DNA of 64,000 bases from Escherichia coli (GTDB taxonomy: Bacteria > Pseudomonadota > Gammaproteobacteria > Enterobacterales > Enterobacteriaceae). Under the pieces are notes generated by a model. It was given only the letters and a program-made list of their open reading frames with translations, had not been told where the DNA came from and searched no databases. A program made the translations under genes and the position numbers. The stretch lies in assembly GCF_003334305.1 (NCBI RefSeq), contig NZ_QOWS01000016.1; one strand, given 5' to 3'. Every line of letters begins with the position of its first letter. The first letter of the stretch is position 1. Below are positions 21,175-53,459 of this stretch, piece after piece.

Positions 21175-22290
21175 ATGCATCGACAATCCTTTTTCCTTGT
21201 GCCCCTTATTTGTCTTTCTTCCGCTCTCTGGGCGGCTCCTGCAACGGTAAATGTCGAAGTACTGCAAGACAAACTCGACCATCCCTGGGCACTGGCCTTT
21301 TTACCCGATAATCACGGTATGTTAATCACTCTGCGCGGCGGCGAGTTGCGTCACTGGCAAGCAGGAAAAGGATTATCTGCGCCGCTTTCCGGAGTTCCGG
21401 ACGTTTGGGCGCACGGGCAGGGCGGCCTGCTGGACGTGGTTTTAGCGCCTGATTTTGCTCAGTCTCGCCGCATCTGGTTAAGTTATTCCGAAGTTGGCGA
21501 TGATGGCAAAGCCGGAACTGCTGTGGGTTATGGCCGCTTAAGTGATGATCTCTCAAAAGTGGCCGACTTCCGCACCGTCTTCCGCCAGATGCCAAAACTG
21601 TCTACCGGCAACCATTTTGGCGGGCGGCTGGTATTCGACGGTAAAGGTTATCTTTTTATTGCTCTGGGCGAAAACAATCAGCGCCCGACGGCGCAGGATC
21701 TGGATAAATTACAGGGCAAACTGGTGCGTCTGACCGACCAGGGCGAAATCCCGGATGATAATCCTTTTATAAAGGAATCCGGTGCGCGCGCCGAGATCTG
21801 GTCTTATGGCATTCGTAATCCGCAAGGAATGGCGATGAATCCGTGGAGTAATGCACTGTGGCTGAATGAACATGGCCCGCGCGGTGGTGATGAAATTAAT
21901 ATCCCGCAAAAAGGCAAAAACTACGGCTGGCCGCTGGCAACCTGGGGAATCAACTATTCAGGCTTTAAGATACCGGAAGCGAAAGGGGAGATCGTCGCCG
22001 GGACCGAGCAACCTGTTTTTTACTGGAAAGATTCGCCCGCTGTGAGCGGCATGGCCTTCTATAACAGCGATAAATTCCCCCAGTGGCAGCAAAAATTATT
22101 TATAGGCGCGCTGAAAGATAAAGATGTCATTGTGATGAGCGTCAACGGCGACAAAGTGACAGAAGATGGCCGTATTTTAACGGACAGAGGGCAGCGAATT
22201 CGTGATGTTCGCACTGGACCCGACGGTTATTTATACGTTCTCACCGACGAGTCCAGTGGGGAATTACTTAAAGTTAGCCCACGCAATTAG
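21175..22290 (+). CDS. yliI: Soluble aldose sugar dehydrogenase (PQQ-dependent beta-propeller), periplasmic
   Basis: 371 aa with signal peptide; matches YliI. Confidence 0.9.
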
Positions 22291-26105: not shown

Positions 26106-27338
26106 ATGCAAAATAAATTAGCTTCCGGTGCCAGGCTTGGACGTCAGGCGTTACTTTTCCCTCTCTGTCTGGTGCTTTACGAATTTTCAACCTATATCGG
26201 CAACGATATGATTCAACCCGGTATGTTGGCCGTGGTGGAACAATATCAGGCGGGCATTGATTGGGTTCCTACTTCGATGACCGCGTATCTGGCAGGCGGG
26301 ATGTTTTTACAATGGCTCCTGGGGCCGCTGTCGGATCGTATTGGTCGCCGTCCGGTGATGCTGGCGGGTGTGGTGTGGTTTATCGTCACCTGTCTGGCAA
26401 TATTACTGGCGCAAAACATACAACAATTCACCCTGTTGCGCTTCTTGCAGGGCATAAGCCTCTGTTTCATTGGCGCTGTGGGATACGCCGCAATTCAGGA
26501 ATCCTTCGAAGAGGCGGTTTGTATCAAGATCACCGCGCTGATGGCGAACGTGGCGCTGATTGCTCCGCTACTTGGTCCGCTGGTGGGCGCGGCGTGGATC
26601 CATGTGCTGCCCTGGGAGGGGATGTTTGTTTTGTTTGCCGCATTGGCAGCGATCTCCTTTTTCGGTCTGCAACGAGCCATGCCTGAAACCGCCACGCGTA
26701 TAGGCGAGAAACTGTCACTGAAAGAACTCGGTCGTGACTATAAGCTGGTGCTGAAGAACGGCCGCTTTGTGGCGGGGGCGCTGGCGCTGGGATTCGTTAG
26801 TCTGCCGTTGCTGGCGTGGATCGCCCAGTCGCCGATTATCATCATTACCGGCGAGCAGTTGAGCAGCTATGAATATGGCTTGCTGCAAGTGCCTATTTTC
26901 GGGGCGTTAATTGCGGGTAACTTGCTGTTAGCGCGTCTGACCTCGCGCCGCACCGTACGTTCGCTGATTATTATGGGCGGCTGGCCGATTATGATTGGTC
27001 TATTGGTCGCTGCTGCGGCAACGGTTATCTCATCGCACGCGTATTTATGGATGACCGCCGGGTTAAGTATTTATGCTTTCGGCATTGGTCTGGCGAATGC
27101 GGGACTGGTGCGATTAACCCTGTTTGCCAGCGATATGAGTAAAGGTACGGTTTCTGCGGCGATGGGAATGCTGCAAATGCTGATCTTTACCGTCGGTATT
27201 GAAATCAGCAAACATGCCTGGCTGAACGGGGGCAACGGACTGTTTAATCTCTTCAACCTTGTCAACGGAATTTTGTGGCTGTCGCTGATGGTTATCTTTT
27301 TAAAAGATAAACAGATGGGAAATTCTCACGAAGGGTAA
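26106..27338 (+). CDS. mdfA: MFS multidrug efflux transporter MdfA/Cmr
   Basis: 410 aa; 12-TM MFS profile; matches MdfA N-terminus [20 protein letters not shown]. Confidence 0.9.
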
Positions 27339-30392: not shown

Positions 30393-30411
30393 TAGATAAG
30401 TTTTAGATAAC

Positions 30412-30490
30412 AAAAAACCCATCAACCTTGAACCGAAATGGCGGGGTTGATGGGCTCCACAAAATGGGGACATCAAAGAAAAGCAGTGGC
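30412..30490 (-). ncRNA. rybB: RybB small RNA (sigma-E-dependent, Hfq-binding)
   Basis: Minus-strand sequence GCCACUGCUUUUCUUUGAUGUCCCCAUUUUGUGGAGCCCAUCAACCCCGCCAUUUCGGUUCAAGGUUGAUGGGUUUUUU matches RybB as I recall it, with terminator hairpin and U-tail. Confidence 0.9.
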
Positions 30491-43157: not shown

Positions 43158-43248
43158 TGTAGGCCGGATAAGGCGTCCACGCCGCATCCGGCACAGGCAC
43201 CGTGCTGATGTCTGATGCGACGCTGGCGCGTCTTATCAGACCTACAAA
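43158..43248. repeat. REP elements between artJ and artM
   Basis: tgtaggccggataaggcgtccacgccgcatccggca and tgtctgatgcgacgctggcgcgtcttatcagacctacaa match REP consensus types. Confidence 0.7.
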
Positions 43249-47002: not shown

Positions 47003-47326
47003 ATGCAATTTTCTACAACCCCAACTCTGGAAGGCCAGATCATCGTTGAATATTGCGGTGTGGTGACCGGCGAAGCGATTTTAGGTGCCAATATTTTCCG
47101 TGATTTCTTTGCTGGTATCCGCGATATCGTTGGCGGACGCTCCGGTGCGTATGAAAAAGAACTGCGCAAAGCGCGGGAGATCGCCTTTGAGGAACTTGGC
47201 TCCCAGGCCCGGGCGCTGGGGGCCGATGCCGTCGTCGGTATTGATATCGACTACGAAACGGTCGGGCAAAACGGCAGTATGCTGATGGTTAGCGTCAGCG
47301 GTACGGCGGTGAAAACGCGTCGATGA
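47003..47326 (+). CDS. ybjQ: UPF0145-family protein YbjQ
   Basis: 107 aa; matches YbjQ N-terminus [12 protein letters not shown]. Confidence 0.8.
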
Positions 47327-48153
47327 GAAGAGTCTTCTGGCTGATCGCTGCCGCTCTGTTACTGGCAGGGTGTGCAGGCGAAAAAGGCATTGTCGAGAAA
47401 GAGGGATATCAGCTTGATACCCGACGCCAGGCGCAGGCGGCGTATCCGCGCATTAGAGTGCTGGTGATCCACTACACCGCAGATGATTTTGATAGCTCGC
47501 TGGCGACACTGACCGATAAGCAGGTCAGCTCGCATTATCTGGTCCCTGCGGTACCACCGCGATACAACGGTAAACCGCGCATCTGGCAACTGGTGCCGGA
47601 ACAAGAACTGGCCTGGCATGCGGGGATTAGCGCCTGGCGCGGGGCAACGCGCCTTAACGACACCTCTATTGGCATTGAGCTGGAAAACCGTGGCTGGCAA
47701 AAATCGGCCGGAGTGAAATATTTTGCCCCGTTTGAACCGGCACAGATTCAGGCGCTTATTCCACTGGCGAAAGATATTATTGCCCGTTATCACATCAAGC
47801 CGGAAAACGTAGTGGCACATGCGGATATCGCACCGCAGCGCAAAGACGATCCGGGGCCATTATTTCCCTGGCAGCAACTGGCGCAGCAGGGGATTGGTGC
47901 CTGGCCGGATGCGCAGCGGGTTAACTTTTACCTTGCCGGGCGCGCGCCGCACACACCGGTAGATACCGCGTCATTGCTGGAGCTTTTGGCGCGCTACGGT
48001 TATGACGTTAAACCTGATATGACACCGCGCGAGCAGCGGCGCGTGATTATGGCATTCCAGATGCATTTCCGCCCGACGTTATATAACGGCGAAGCGGATG
48101 CAGAAACTCAGGCGATTGCCGAAGCATTGCTGGAGAAATACGGGCAGGATTAG
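47323..48153 (+). CDS. amiD: N-acetylmuramoyl-L-alanine amidase AmiD (lipoprotein)
   Basis: 276 aa; lipobox LAGC; start overlaps the ybjQ stop. Confidence 0.9.
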
Positions 48154-49163
48154 CGCGGCAGTTTTCCGTGGTCGCGTAGCCAGGCGGCAGTTTTCTCGAT
48201 ACCTTCATCCAGGGTGATGACCGGCTGATAACCTAACTCTTCCTGCGCACGCGTAATATCCAGCGTAAAGTCAAAATTCAACTTGGAGACGCCGTAGTGG
48301 GTCAGCGGCGGCTCTTTTGCTGACTTGCGGCCTAAACGCTCCATGCTGCGGGCGATCATATCCAGCATCGGGTAGGGGACGGAACGAATACGACAGTCAA
48401 TATTCAACTCGTCGATCAGCTTCTGCACGATGCTGCGCAGTGTGCGATGCTCGCCGTTGGTGATGTTGTACACACGCCCGGAAGGTAGCTTATCGCAGGC
48501 TTCCTGGCTTGCCAGCCACATTGCGTGCACGGCATTTTCATAGTAGGTCATATCGACCAGCGCACTGCCGCCATGCGGTAACAGAATACTGCCGTAGTGG
48601 TGCATCATATGCGCCAGACGGGGAATAAAGACTTTATCGTGCGGTCCGAACAGACTTTGTGGGCGCAGAATAGTAAAGCGCGTTTGTGGATTCGCCTGCG
48701 AAAGCATATTGATCACTTCTTCGCTGGCTGCTTTGCTGCGGGCAAACTCGTTGGCGAAGCGGTGAGGGCGAAAATCTTCTTTAATATCGCGATGGTGGTG
48801 ATAATCGAAGTACAGGGAGGGGGAAGAGATATGAATAAAGTTACGCACACCCCAGGCGACAGCCCATTCACCCAGGCGGCGAGTGGCGCGAACGTTAGCC
48901 AGATCGAAAGCCTGTTGTGTCCCCCAGGGTGAGGTAAAGCTGGAGCAGTGCCACAGCGTATCAATGCCCGCGAGCATCACTTTAGCTTGTGATGAAACCA
49001 GCTCGGTCAGATCCGCCGGAACAAACTCTGCGCCCATTTTTTCCAGCAATTTGCCCATTGCCTCGTTGCGACCGGTCGCTCGCACGCTGATGCCTTTCTG
49101 GCATAAAAACTCTACCGCGTTTCGACCTAAGCCGCTGGTGGCGCCGGTAACCAGTACCTTCAT
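48150..49163 (-). CDS. ybjS: NAD(P)-dependent epimerase/dehydratase-family protein
   Basis: ATG 49163 gives 337 aa starting [17 protein letters not shown] (Rossmann motif). Confidence 0.8.
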
Positions 49164-49261
49164 ATCAATCCACTGTTGTTGAGAAAATAACGTGCGCATT
49201 CTTCCGTGATTTCCCCCATGATGCAATGGGAAACATGAAAGAATAACGCAGGTTTTGTCGA

Positions 49262-50692
49262 TTAATCTGTGCTTTGTTCTGCCAGTCTGGCGATTTGTTT
49301 TGCCATTCCGCGAAAAATAAACAGATGCGCGGGGATCATCAATAACCAGTAAAACAGCCCCGGCATACCGTGCGGATGCCAGAAAGCGCGGACATCGATA
49401 GTACGATAGTCGCCTTTATCTTCCAGGCTAAAACACAGTCGTCCCAGCCCCGGCGCTTTCATGCCAAATAACAACGTAAGTTGTTTTTCCGGTTCAACGA
49501 CAATCACTTTCCAGCTATCTACCGCATCGCCAGTCTGTAAATATTCGCGCTCCGGGCGGCCTTTCGCCAGCTTATGACCGATCGCGCGGTCCATCAACGC
49601 CCGTGTCTGCCACAAAATATTGCCAAAGAAATAACGCTCTTTACCGCCGATTTGGTTCACTACCTGCCATAAAGCAGCAAGGCTGGCGGACGTTTTAACG
49701 GTAAACCCCGCCTGTTTGGCAAAATAACCGTACTCCGGTCGCCAGCGGGCAAAGGCCTGAGCGTCGTAGCCCCAGTCGCTGGAGTTGACCAGTTTTTCCT
49801 CCTCTTTCAACGTGCTACGTACCGCGTCATCGAAAGCGATCAGCCGTTGTGGGATGAGTGCACGTAGCGCGGTATCATCCGCCAGCAGATCGTGTTTCAG
49901 CCCCTGAATCAACGCCCTGGCGGTGGTGGGCGGTACGGAAGTAATCACATTGAGAAACCACACCGAAATCCAGCGGGTGGGGAGGGGGATGGGGATCAAC
50001 CAGCGGCGCTTACCGCTCACCGCCATAAAATGTTCAAACTGTTGCTGATAACTGAGCACCTCTGGTCCGGCGGCTTCGAAGATGCGGTGTTCGCTGGCCG
50101 GATGATCTAACAACGCCACCAGATAGTGCAGCAAGTTTTCCAGCGCGATGGGCGTGGTGCGTGAACGTACCCAGCGTGGCGGCGTTAACACTGGCAGGTT
50201 GTAGACCATATCGCGCATGACTTCGAACGCCGCTGAACCTGCGCCAACGATAATTCCGGCCCGAAGTTCGGTCACAGGTACATTCGATTCACGAAGAATG
50301 TCCGCCGTAGCCTGACGAGCACGCAGATGATCCGACTGCTCATGTGGCGGGGCCTGCAACGAACTGAGAAAGATTAATTGCTTAACTGGTACTTCACGTA
50401 GCGCATCGCGGACGTTGAGAGCCACCTGGCGCTCCTGAGCGATAAAATCGCCGCCTTCGCCCATGCTGTGCACCAGAAAATAGACGGTATCGATATCCTG
50501 CAACAGGGCCGAAAGGTTATCCGGCCAGCTGAGATCGACTTTATGGCAACTGACGTTTGCCAGTTGCAGCTTTGCAAGCCTGTCGACATGACGTGCCGCC
50601 GCCAGGATCTGATGCCCTTGCTGGCTGAGTGTGCGCACCAGATGCTGACCAATGTAGCCACTGGCACCGAGAACTAAAATGCGTTGCGGCAC
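49262..50692 (-). CDS. ybjT: NAD(P)-binding SDR-like protein with extra C-terminal domain
   Basis: GTG 50692 gives 476 aa starting (M)[18 protein letters not shown]. Confidence 0.8.
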
Positions 50693-50702
50693 GTCTCTCT
50701 CC

Positions 50703-51704
50703 TTAACGCGCCAGGAATGCGCGCCAGTGGGCGGCGACTTCCGCCAGTTGTTCGCGCGAGACGTCAAGATGCGTCACCAGGCGGACAATCGGCGAGGCGT
50801 TAATCAGCACGTTTCTCGCTTTCATGTATTCGCCTAACGCGGCAGCATTTTCTTCCCCGACGCGAACAAACAGCATATTAGTGTCCTGACGCATCACATC
50901 CGCGCCTGCTTCACGCAGTTGCTCCGCCATCCAGGCGGCGTTGTCGTGATCTTCCTGCAACCGTGCGACGTTATTTTTCAGGGCATACATCCCGGCGGCA
51001 GCCAGAATCCCGGACTGACGCATCCCGCCACCGGCCATTTTCCGCCAGCGGATGGCACGTTTAATGTAATCACGATTACCGACGAGTAATGAACCGACTG
51101 GCGTCCCAAGACCTTTCGACAGGCAAATGGTGAACGAATCACAATATTGCGTGATCTCTTTCAGTTCGCAGCCGTAAGCCACCACGGCATTAAAGATGCG
51201 CGCACCGTCAACATGCAGCGCCAGATTGCGCTCGCGGGTAAATTCCCATGCTTCTTTCAGGTATTCACGCGGCAGCACTTTGCCGTTGTGGGTGTTTTCC
51301 AGACTGAGTAATTTGGTGCGGGCGAAATGGATATCGTCGGGTTTGATTTTCATCGCCACTTTATCCAGCGGTAGCGTGCCGTCGGCAGCCGCGTCGATGG
51401 GTTGCGGCTGAATACTGCCCAGCACCGCTGCGCCACCGGCTTCAAACAGATAGTTATGCGCGGCCTGACCGACAATATACTCTTCGCCACGTTCGCAGTG
51501 ACTGAGCAGAGCGACCAGGTTGGCCTGAGTGCCGGTAGGCAGAAAAATGGCGGCTTCTTTACCGGAAAGCTCTGCTGCATAGTCCTGCAGAGCATGAACG
51601 GTAGGGTCGTCTCCGTAAACGTCGTCCCCAACCGGGGCGGCCATCATCGCTTCGAGCATGGCGCGGCTCGGTCGGGTAACGGTATCACTGCGTAAATCAA
51701 TCAT
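50703..51704 (-). CDS. ltaE: Low-specificity L-threonine aldolase (PLP-dependent)
   Basis: 333 aa; matches LtaE N-terminus [12 protein letters not shown]. Confidence 0.9.
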
Positions 51705-51740: not shown

Positions 51741-53459
51741 TTACCTTAGCCAGTTCGTTTTCGCCAGTTCGATCACTTCATCGCCGCGTCCGCTGATAAT
51801 TGCGCGCAACATATACAGGCTAAAACCTTTGGCCTGTTCGAGTTTGATCTGCGGTGGAATGGCTAACTCTTCTTTGGCGACCACCACATCCACCAACACC
51901 GGACCGTCGATAGAGAAGGCGCGTTGCAGGGCTTCATCAACTTCAGACGCTTTTTCTACACGGATACCCGTAATGCCGCACGCTTCGGCAATGCGGGCAA
52001 AGTTTGTGTCGTGTAGTTCGGTGCCGTCAGTCAAATAGCCACCAGCTTTCATCTCCATCGCCACAAAGCCCAGCACGCTGTTGTTAAAGACGACAATTTT
52101 CACTGGCAGTTTCATCTGCACTACTGAGAGGAAATCGCCCATCAACATGCTAAAACCGCCATCGCCGCACATGGCGACCACCTGACGTTCTGGCTCTGTC
52201 GCCTGCGCACCCAGCGCCTGCGGCATGGCGTTAGCCATCGAACCGTGGTTAAACGAACCTAACAGGCGACGCTTGCCGTTCATTTTCAGATAACGTGCCG
52301 CCCATACCGTTGGCGTGCCGACGTCACAGGTAAAGATGGCGTCATCGGCGGCAAAATGACTAATTTGCTGCGCCAGATATTGCGGGTGAATGGCTTTCTC
52401 GCTCGGTTTAGCTAAATCGTCCAGCCCTTTGCGGGCATCGCGGTAATCTTCCAGCGCTTTATCCAGAAACTTGCGATCGGTTTTTTCTTCCACCAGTGGC
52501 AGCAATGCACGCAGAGTCGACTTGATATCGCCGACCAGTGCCATATCCACCTTGCTGTGAGCGCCGATGCTGGCTGGGTTGATATCAATCTGAATGATTT
52601 TGGCATCGGTCGGGTAGAAGGCGCGGTAGGGAAATTGCGTGCCGAGTAGCACTAACGTGTCGGCGTTCATCATGGTATGGAAACCTGACGAGAAGCCGAT
52701 TAACCCGGTCATTCCAACATCATACGGATTATCGTATTCGACATGTTCTTTACCGCGCAGGGCATGAACAATAGGCGCTTTAATTTTCCCGGCAAACTCA
52801 ACTAACTCTTTATGCGCCCCCGCGCAGCCGCTGCCACACATCAGGGCGATATTGCTGGAATAACGCAGCAGTTGCGCCAGTTTGCGTAACTCTTCTTCTT
52901 CCGGCGTCACGACTGGTTGTGGCGCATGATACCAGTGCGTGGTTGCCCCTTCTGGCGCAGGTTTTAACGCCACGTCGCCTGGTAACACGACAACCGAAAC
53001 GCCACGGTTAAGCACCGCTTTGCGCATGGCAATCGCCAGTACTTGTGGGATCTGCTCCGGGCTGGAAACCAGCTCGCAATAGTGACTACATTCGCGGAAT
53101 AGCTCTTGTGGGTGGGTTTCCTGGAAATAGCCGCTGCCAATTTCGCTGGAGGGAATATGAGCGGCAATCGCCAGTACCGGAACGTGATTGCGGTGGCAAT
53201 CGAACAGGCCGTTGATTAAGTGCAGGTTGCCGGGGCCGCACGATCCGGCGCAGACCGCCAGTTCTCCGCTAAGTTGTGCTTCAGCGCCAGCGGCAAAGGC
53301 CGCCACTTCTTCGTGGCGGGTGGACATCCACTCGATGGTGCCCATGCGATTAAGACTGTCACTAAGACCGTTCAGAGAGTCGCCTGTGACTCCCCAGATG
53401 CGTTTCACCCCTGCCGATTCGAGTGTTTTGGCGATATAAGCTGCAACCGTTTGTTTCAT
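51741..53459 (-). CDS. poxB: Pyruvate oxidase (ubiquinone), TPP/FAD-dependent
   Basis: 572 aa; matches PoxB N-terminus [32 protein letters not shown]. Confidence 0.9.

Follow-up and report, generated by a model that had tools for sequence, protein, structure and literature searches.

The 4.7-kb interval at positions 47003-51704 of a 64,000-nucleotide (nt) stretch of Escherichia coli DNA (contig NZ_QOWS01000016.1; the whole stretch is called the window) contains the genes ybjQ, amiD, ybjS, ybjT and ltaE. An original prediction, made from the sequence alone, took the tight packing of the first four genes as a sign of a cell-envelope-related module. The analysis described here indicates with good confidence that three independent units meet in this interval, which is a shared block of synteny in Enterobacteriaceae, and that they are not one system. 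The three units are the translationally coupled pair ybjQ-amiD, ybjS with its own upstream block, and the operon poxB-ltaE-ybjT. As these units have separate evolutionary histories, their close spacing would represent ordinary gene packing with no hidden cell-envelope module behind it.

The four genes are split over both strands. On the plus strand are ybjQ (47003-47326; 107 amino acids (aa)) and amiD (47323-48153; 276 aa), both of which are supported by an open reading frame (ORF) and by the RefSeq annotation. On the minus strand are ybjS (48150-49163; 337 aa) and ybjT (49262-50692; 476 aa, with a GTG start), whose starts follow RefSeq. The ORFs and RefSeq agree with the predicted genes, their order and both 4-nt overlaps. 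At the ybjQ/amiD junction, the common ATGA at 47323-47326 places the amiD start over the ybjQ stop. The amiD stop TAG (48151-48153) and the minus-strand ybjS stop TAA (48150-48152) generate a convergent overlap of 4 nt at 48150-48153. The description of the gene ends as overlapping or abutting applies further to ltaE and ybjT, which are separated by 10 nt with ltaE upstream of the ybjT GTG, but not to ybjT and ybjS, which are 98 nt apart.

Published work describes poxB-ltaE-ybjT as a single operon conserved in enterobacteria (PMC2759082). The genomic comparison described below is consistent with the division into three units: the ltaE-ybjT gap is 23 nt or shorter in 72 of the 80 Enterobacterales loci, and ybjQ and amiD overlap through ATGA in 33 of 57 loci and either overlap or lie no more than 10 nt apart in 54 of 57, which fits translational coupling. 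The 4-nt overlap between amiD and ybjS is kept in just 22 of about 60 Enterobacterales loci, with gaps from 0 to 2921 nt elsewhere, and it is therefore considered incidental. The spacer between ybjT and ybjS is near-constant in length (85-99 nt in 66 of 79 loci). It includes a conserved non-coding block of 42 nt on the minus strand, TTTCCCATTGCAT-N10-ATTCACGGAAGAATGCGCACG, at 49192-49233, which corresponds to 29-70 nt upstream of the ybjS ATG. In an alignment from 15 enterobacterial genera, little or no variation is seen in ATTGCA and CACGGAAGAATGC(G/C)C, and the flanks drift. A weak -35-like TTGCAT and a -10-like AAGAAT separated by a 17-nt spacer are recognized in the block, which is a probable promoter or operator of ybjS. 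By eye, matches in this block to the CpxR box (GTAAA-N5-GTAAA) and to sigma-32 or sigma-E promoters were too weak to claim, and the block could not be ascribed to any sigma factor or regulator. The consensus promoter/terminator scan returned fewer promoter-like sites than were seen in shuffles, and it identified no clear terminator downstream of amiD or of ybjT. No RNA elements were found in the interval with Rfam.

The packing of ybjQ-amiD-ybjS-ybjT is ordinary, and a convergent overlap of 4 nt is a common arrangement. Of the ten convergent pairs of genes in the window, three (yliI/gstB, amiD/ybjS, and ybjD/ybjX) have an overlap of exactly 4 nt, as do three co-directional pairs (potH/potI, ybjQ/amiD, and macA/macB). 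The yliI/gstB overlap is located at 22287-22290 in the first half of the window (L102), and that of ybjD/ybjX at 27130-27133 in the second half (L103). An RNA-seq survey lists amiD-ybjS as one of 165 convergent "excludons" of E. coli, beside yliI-gstB and ybjD-ybjX (PMC12288877).

The interval belongs to the core genome of E. coli; it is 100% identical to E. coli chromosomes, and 5425 of the 5426 complete genomes of the species carry it. Its conservation beyond the species was analyzed with YbjT as the anchor. Using eight close sequences as the query, 80 Enterobacterales loci (one genome per species, 62-95% identity) and none from outside this order were collected, and genes were scored within 10 kb of ybjT. 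ltaE was found in all 80 loci, ybjS in 79, poxB in 75, amiD in 65, and ybjQ in 58. Enterobacter, Lelliottia, Leclercia, Huaxiibacter, and most Yersinia lack the ybjQ-amiD pair here but retain ybjS-ybjT. In Y. pestis, ybjP and artP come directly after ybjS, with ybjQ-amiD cleanly gone. Several loci contain amiD without ybjQ, or a displaced or inverted ybjQ, and one locus (L063) has ybjT without ybjS. Proteus mirabilis encodes a YbjT of 58% identity whose gene abuts artP, and none of ybjS, amiD, ybjQ, ltaE, and poxB is present within 10 kb. In Aeromonas, ybjT stands alone, and ybjQ is 1.6 Mb away with no adjoining amidase gene. Seven distant YbjT homologs show no shared neighbours, and those of Corallincola, Alginatibacterium, Biformimicrobium, two metagenome-assembled genomes, and Thermus have none in common with E. 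coli or among themselves. The genes dissociate across taxa, and they do not co-occur as a module would.

YbjS is an extended-type short-chain dehydrogenase/reductase (SDR), as indicated by Pfam matches to PF01370 (E-value 2.4e-29, residues 3-234) and PF01073 (3Beta_HSD, E-value 6.4e-17). Its glycine-rich motif TGATSGLG at residues 6-13 is intact. Ser113/114 and Lys144 are kept, and Phe140 occupies the position of the catalytic Tyr. The segment F140-A-R-S-K144 falls on YxxxK in five independent pairwise alignments, including those with NSDHL (6jkg), 9g83_P, MoeE5, and 3wj7. Phe140 is observed in 78 of 79 Enterobacterales YbjS orthologs, and the Hafnia ortholog has Tyr. The catalytic Ser...Tyr-x-x-x-Lys triad of the family is thus incomplete in YbjS. 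Despite the lost Tyr, conservation is higher for YbjS than for the YbjT and AmiD encoded alongside it, as seen in Klebsiella with identities of 87%, 82%, and 78%, respectively. The top family matches are OleD (NF042422, 137 bits against a cut-off of 580), HpnA, and SdmB, and the top match in the PDB is human NSDHL. As the scores are below the curated cut-offs, YbjS was not accepted as an ortholog of OleD or HpnA, nor as a member of the SdmB family; no oleA-, oleB-, or oleC-like genes were found in the window. Expression of ybjS was induced 2.3-fold in a study of the CpxR regulon (PMC2731931).

Outside Enterobacterales, YbjS homologs of 35-50% identity are encoded in a co-linear gene cassette, often with overlapping gene ends. 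The order is 3-oxoacyl-acyl carrier protein synthase III (KAS III), an ATP-grasp protein (in Bacillota only), the SDR, a metallo-beta-lactamase (MBL)-fold hydrolase, and an adenylating enzyme related to F390 synthetase (TIGR02304, 498 bits). The cassette is distributed in Beta-, Alpha-, and Gammaproteobacteria and in Bacillota. It is complete in Burkholderia, Ralstonia, Paracoccus, Pontibacillus, and Paenibacillus, and Pseudomonas amygdali has the KAS III, SDR, and MBL genes with no F390-synthetase homolog. The inspected loci are L089 (7018-11105), L090 (7015-10980), L091 (5895-11119), L099 (5024-9087), L100 (4554-7804), and L101 (3763-9178). The identity of YbjS to the cassette SDRs is 48-50% for Ralstonia and Burkholderia, and 35-41% for Paracoccus, Pseudomonas, Bacillus, and Paenibacillus. 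The catalytic Tyr is present in all six cassette SDRs inspected. In a plasmid and chromid collection, the MBL gene is directly downstream in 25 of 33 non-enterobacterial records with a YbjS homolog, and all 26 MBL hits adjoin a YbjS homolog. This collection also files several whole chromosomes as plasmids. No cassette partners were found in the window, where tblastn with the cassette proteins matched YbjS alone; E. coli ybjS is flanked by ybjT and amiD, not by KAS III upstream and MBL downstream. The literature search found no paper that characterizes the KAS III/MBL/F390-synthetase cassette. Its logic resembles the Ole pathway, and its product may be lipid- or polyketide-like. E. coli YbjS would be an orphaned descendant of the cassette reductase. 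Because the cassette partners and the catalytic Tyr were lost and the protein is still strongly conserved, YbjS most likely binds NAD(P)(H) but has a redox chemistry that is impaired or altered, and does not act as a classical dehydrogenase.

Two records filed as E. coli plasmids in PLSDB, CP054248.1 (91034-92831) and NZ_CP141085.1 (86460-88257), contain the cassette with an SDR of 44% identity to YbjS. These records are large (542 kb and 386 kb), and they represent either unusual megaplasmids or mislabelled records.

YbjT consists of two domains. Pfam recognizes NAD_binding_10/Epimerase followed by DUF2867 at residues 332-463, so that the extra C-terminal domain noticed in the original prediction is confirmed by domain annotation. 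Residues 1 to about 300 form an atypical NDUFA9-like SDR domain with the motif GASGYIG. In this domain, S120-x-H122-x-x-x-R126 stands for S-x-Y-x-x-x-K, and the Tyr-x-x-x-Lys catalytic pair is thus absent. Among 49 aligned members of the YbjT family (27-58% identity), R126 is invariant and H122 nearly so, and the glycine motif and several C-terminal motifs are conserved. Alignment with hhalign placed H122 and R126 exactly over the Tyr and Lys of a Thermus NDUFA9-family protein (probability 99.4%). The full-length architecture of SDR and DUF2867, with a chain of about 480 aa, is widespread (812 clusters at E-value ≤ 1e-30). The best PDB relatives by sequence and fold are 9g83_P, an NDUFA9-like protein of an alphaproteobacterial supercomplex, and mitochondrial NDUFA9; with Foldseek, sugar epimerases were about as good as NDUFA9.

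The AlphaFold2 model of YbjT has a predicted local distance difference test (pLDDT) score of 91.7 and a predicted template modelling (pTM) score of 0.90. The C-terminal DUF2867 domain (49268-49717 on the minus strand, residues about 326-475) is a helix-grip domain of the START/Bet v 1 type (SRPBCC), in which an antiparallel sheet surrounds a long C-terminal helix. From the fold, a pocket for a hydrophobic small molecule is predicted. The sole hydrophobic stretch, residues 442-460 with a mean hydropathy of 1.52, corresponds to this long core helix. YbjT was placed in an envelope-biogenesis network and labelled "inner-membrane tethered" (PMC2672614). Since residues 442-460 form the core helix of the START fold, this label may overstate membrane integration. 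YbjT was considered as an integral membrane protein and rejected, because the only candidate stretch is buried in a confident model. The other mentions of ybjT in the literature are screen hits without follow-up, and the literature search found no characterization of DUF2867. Neither YbjS nor YbjT reached an NCBIfam model, and no characterizing paper was found for them, in line with the earlier remark that no substrate has been assigned to either. Clear orthology to enzymes of a known pathway outside the envelope, named in the original prediction as grounds for refutation, was not seen either, as no known pathway could be assigned.

In Thermus thermophilus HB27, the YbjT homolog (32% identity; L092, 7998-9443) is encoded on pTT27 amid genes with light-response and carotenoid annotations. 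Its neighbours are carH, ldrP, a gene of the phytoene/squalene synthase family, photolyase, uvsE, a YceI-family protein, and a separate NDUFA9-family SDR. This context hints at an isoprenoid or photo-oxidative link of the YbjT family in this species. As another observation on YbjT, the protein database includes fusions of LtaE to YbjT with 806-814 aa, a dozen singleton ORFs that come from E. coli assemblies. An offset of 13 nt at the junction (50692-50705) puts the ybjT GTG in another frame than the ltaE stop, so such fusions require a frameshift, and they are probably sequencing or assembly errors.

The domain architecture of the plus-strand products was also as anticipated. AmiD matches Amidase_2 (PF01510, E-value 6.2e-30), with a weak match to PG_binding_1, and its residues 18-276 match the solved structures of E. 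coli AmiD (2bh7, 2wkx, 3d2y, and 3d2z; E-value 5.5e-177). The lipobox LAGC with Cys17 and Ala at +2, read from the sequence, together with a weak Pfam hit to LPAM_1, points to a lipoprotein signal with a residue for outer-membrane sorting. AmiD is a proven peptidoglycan amidase of described substrate range; it cuts the MurNAc-L-Ala bond in a zinc-dependent manner in both anhydro- and non-anhydro-muropeptides (PMC6403190). YbjQ matches PF01906, formerly UPF0145 (E-value 2.4e-38), and the NCBIfam equivalog NF002776 (216.9 bits against a cut-off of 160), and it shows a full-length match to the pentameric structure of the Shigella ortholog (1y2i, E-value 1.2e-63). No signal peptide or hydrophobic segment was found in the YbjQ sequence.

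YbjQ is 58-65% identical to homologs from Thermus, Paracoccus, Azospirillum, Bacillus, and Bacteroidota, whose genomic contexts are mutually unrelated. Judged from these identities, its conservation across phyla is unusually high for a protein of its kind. No amidase gene was found near YbjQ homologs of 59-81% identity in Aeromonas, Thermus, Aureibacter, and Bacillus, and the ybjQ-amiD pairing appears to be confined to Enterobacterales. In Thermus oshimai, ybjQ separates cobT from the ribazoletransferase gene inside an operon for cobalamin synthesis, and the Paracoccus ybjQ adjoins sufB.

The reading of the interval as three units is to be weighed against the idea from which the analysis started, that ybjQ, amiD, ybjS, and ybjT constitute one cell-envelope module, for example for the remodelling of peptidoglycan or envelope lipids. 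Such a module would be compatible with the action of AmiD on peptidoglycan, the listing of ybjS as CpxR-induced, the envelope-biogenesis neighbourhood of YbjT, the adjacency of the four genes in most Enterobacteriaceae (58-65 of 80 loci), and the report of amiD/ybjS as a convergent excludon pair. It is nevertheless very unlikely, as the genes are distributed over two strands and three transcription units, ybjQ-amiD are lost from Enterobacter-group genera and most Yersinia, Proteus keeps only ybjT, distant homologs share no neighbours, and the 4-nt overlap is both frequent among the convergent pairs of the window and poorly kept across loci. A narrower alternative is that only ybjS and ybjT belong together functionally, as two non-canonical SDR-fold proteins with a hydrophobic substrate or partner in common, and that ybjQ-amiD and ltaE-poxB are unrelated bystanders. 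In 79 of 80 loci the two genes lie side by side in one orientation, their spacer is of near-constant length, both proteins are without the catalytic Tyr, and both are related to SDRs of lipid type (YbjS to OleD and NSDHL, YbjT to NDUFA9 with a START domain). This pairing is regarded as unlikely: no YbjS-like gene is present within 6-10 kb of ybjT in Proteus, in Aeromonas, or next to five more distant YbjT homologs, locus L063 retains ybjT without ybjS, YbjS homologs elsewhere are partnered with KAS III, MBL, and F390-synthetase genes and not with a DUF2867 protein, and ybjS has its own conserved upstream block.

Another alternative concerns YbjT alone, as a membrane-peripheral accessory of PoxB (pyruvate:ubiquinone oxidoreductase) in stationary phase, which would hold NADPH and bind a quinone or lipid in a role like that of NDUFA9, which is located by the quinone site of complex I. 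The published operon, poxB beside ybjT in 75 of 80 loci, and the short ltaE-ybjT gap are in line with it, as are the bacterial and mitochondrial NDUFA9 proteins among the top sequence and fold matches, the suitability of a START-type domain for a lipophilic ligand, and the reported association with the inner membrane. The probability given to this role is low, because neither poxB nor ltaE is near ybjT homologs outside Enterobacteriaceae, Yersiniaceae, and Hafniaceae, the Foldseek E-values for NDUFA9 are no better than those for sugar epimerases, and the membrane label may derive from the C-terminal helix that is buried in the START-fold model. A more speculative proposal, given little credence, unites both SDR-fold proteins as "Tyr-less" pseudo-dehydrogenases kept as nucleotide and lipid sensors. 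YbjS would then be the orphaned, Phe140-bearing remnant of a lipid-type biosynthetic cassette, which Enterobacteriaceae have put to new use as a regulator or scaffold that binds NAD(P)(H) and is controlled by envelope stress. YbjT, as a fusion of NDUFA9-like and START domains, would keep a quinone or isoprenoid lipid bound at the inner membrane during stationary phase.

Several points weigh against the division into three independent units. All 80 loci were anchored on ybjT and are from one order, and the contexts of distant homologs are small samples, which for YbjS come from the plasmid and chromid collection only. The adjacency of ybjT and ybjS in 79 of the 80 Enterobacterales loci could reflect a functional pairing rather than just inherited synteny. 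The block upstream of ybjS scores weakly against the sigma-70 consensus, and the promoter scan made no call in the ybjT-ybjS spacer. The missing Tyr in YbjS is no proof of lost catalysis. Finally, the Cpx induction of ybjS and the envelope network and inner-membrane label of YbjT hint that both are tied to the envelope, like AmiD.

According to the three-unit reading, ybjQ and amiD would be expressed as a translationally coupled plus-strand pair. AmiD, as shown by others, is exported and anchored by lipid in the outer membrane, and YbjQ would be a small cytoplasmic protein, probably pentameric. On the minus strand, ybjS would be transcribed alone from its conserved upstream block, with the end of its transcript running into that of amiD. 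YbjS would have been derived from the reductase of the widespread lipid- or polyketide-like cassette, with the partners and the Tyr lost in Enterobacteriaceae and Yersiniaceae and the protein still strongly conserved. ybjT would be the tail of the stationary-phase poxB-ltaE-ybjT operon, and its product most likely binds NAD(P)(H) together with a hydrophobic ligand, such as a lipid, a quinone, or an isoprenoid-like molecule, at or near the inner membrane.

Beyond ybjT, ltaE (50703-51704, minus strand) encodes the low-specificity L-threonine aldolase (NCBIfam NF007825, 708.7 bits against a cut-off of 312). Upstream of it is poxB (51741-53459, minus strand), the first gene of the operon, annotated in RefSeq as the ubiquinone-dependent pyruvate dehydrogenase and located outside the interval originally described. 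The RefSeq neighbours of the segment from ybjQ to ltaE are ybjP-artPIQM at one end and poxB-hcr-hcp at the other. Elsewhere in the window, Rfam matches above the gathering score were obtained for the small RNA RybB (30409-30487, minus strand, 105 bits) and for naRNA4/CssrE (43162-43242, plus strand, 78.5 bits).

As a discovery, the interval has little weight, since the genes are annotated E. coli core genes and the structures of AmiD and YbjQ are already solved. The gain is in refinements of annotation, namely Phe140 of YbjS, His122/Arg126 of YbjT, and the START fold. The assumption that YbjS is a working dehydrogenase is unwarranted, and its relatives are found in a cassette of KAS III, SDR, MBL, and adenylating enzyme. 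YbjT is better treated as an atypical nucleotide-binding domain joined to a START-type ligand pocket. These refinements open the way to direct and cheap experiments on the function of both proteins.

Comparison with known systems separates the four proteins into familiar and less familiar members. AmiD shows no difference from the Amidase_2 lipoprotein amidases AmiD, AmpDh2, and AmpDh3 (also represented by 4bpa and 4bxd), and it is the same known enzyme. YbjQ belongs to the UPF0145 family with the structures 1y2i, 1vr4, and 2gtc; the family name "heavy-metal-binding" is a prediction, and the literature search found no experiment on heavy-metal binding by this family. The C-terminal domain of YbjT is related to SRPBCC/START/Bet v 1 proteins such as SMU.440 (3ijt), the polyketide ARO/CYC proteins, PYR/PYL, and the SDR-SRPBCC fusion 3oh8, with sequence identity of 4-16%. 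The similarity of YbjT to NDUFA9, the 39-kDa subunit of complex I, is one of sequence and fold alone, and YbjT differs in having the added START-type domain and His/Arg in place of the Tyr/Lys of the NDUFA9 family. To our knowledge, complex I of E. coli has no NDUFA9-like subunit. YbjS aligns over its full length with the extended SDRs OleD, NSDHL, and 3-beta-HSD and falls in the same 3-beta-HSD/OleD-like branch. The likeness to OleD extends to gene context, as distant YbjS homologs are found in an Ole-like set of condensing enzyme, reductase, adenylating enzyme, and hydrolase, whereas E. coli YbjS is distinguished from OleD and NSDHL by Phe140 in place of the catalytic Tyr.

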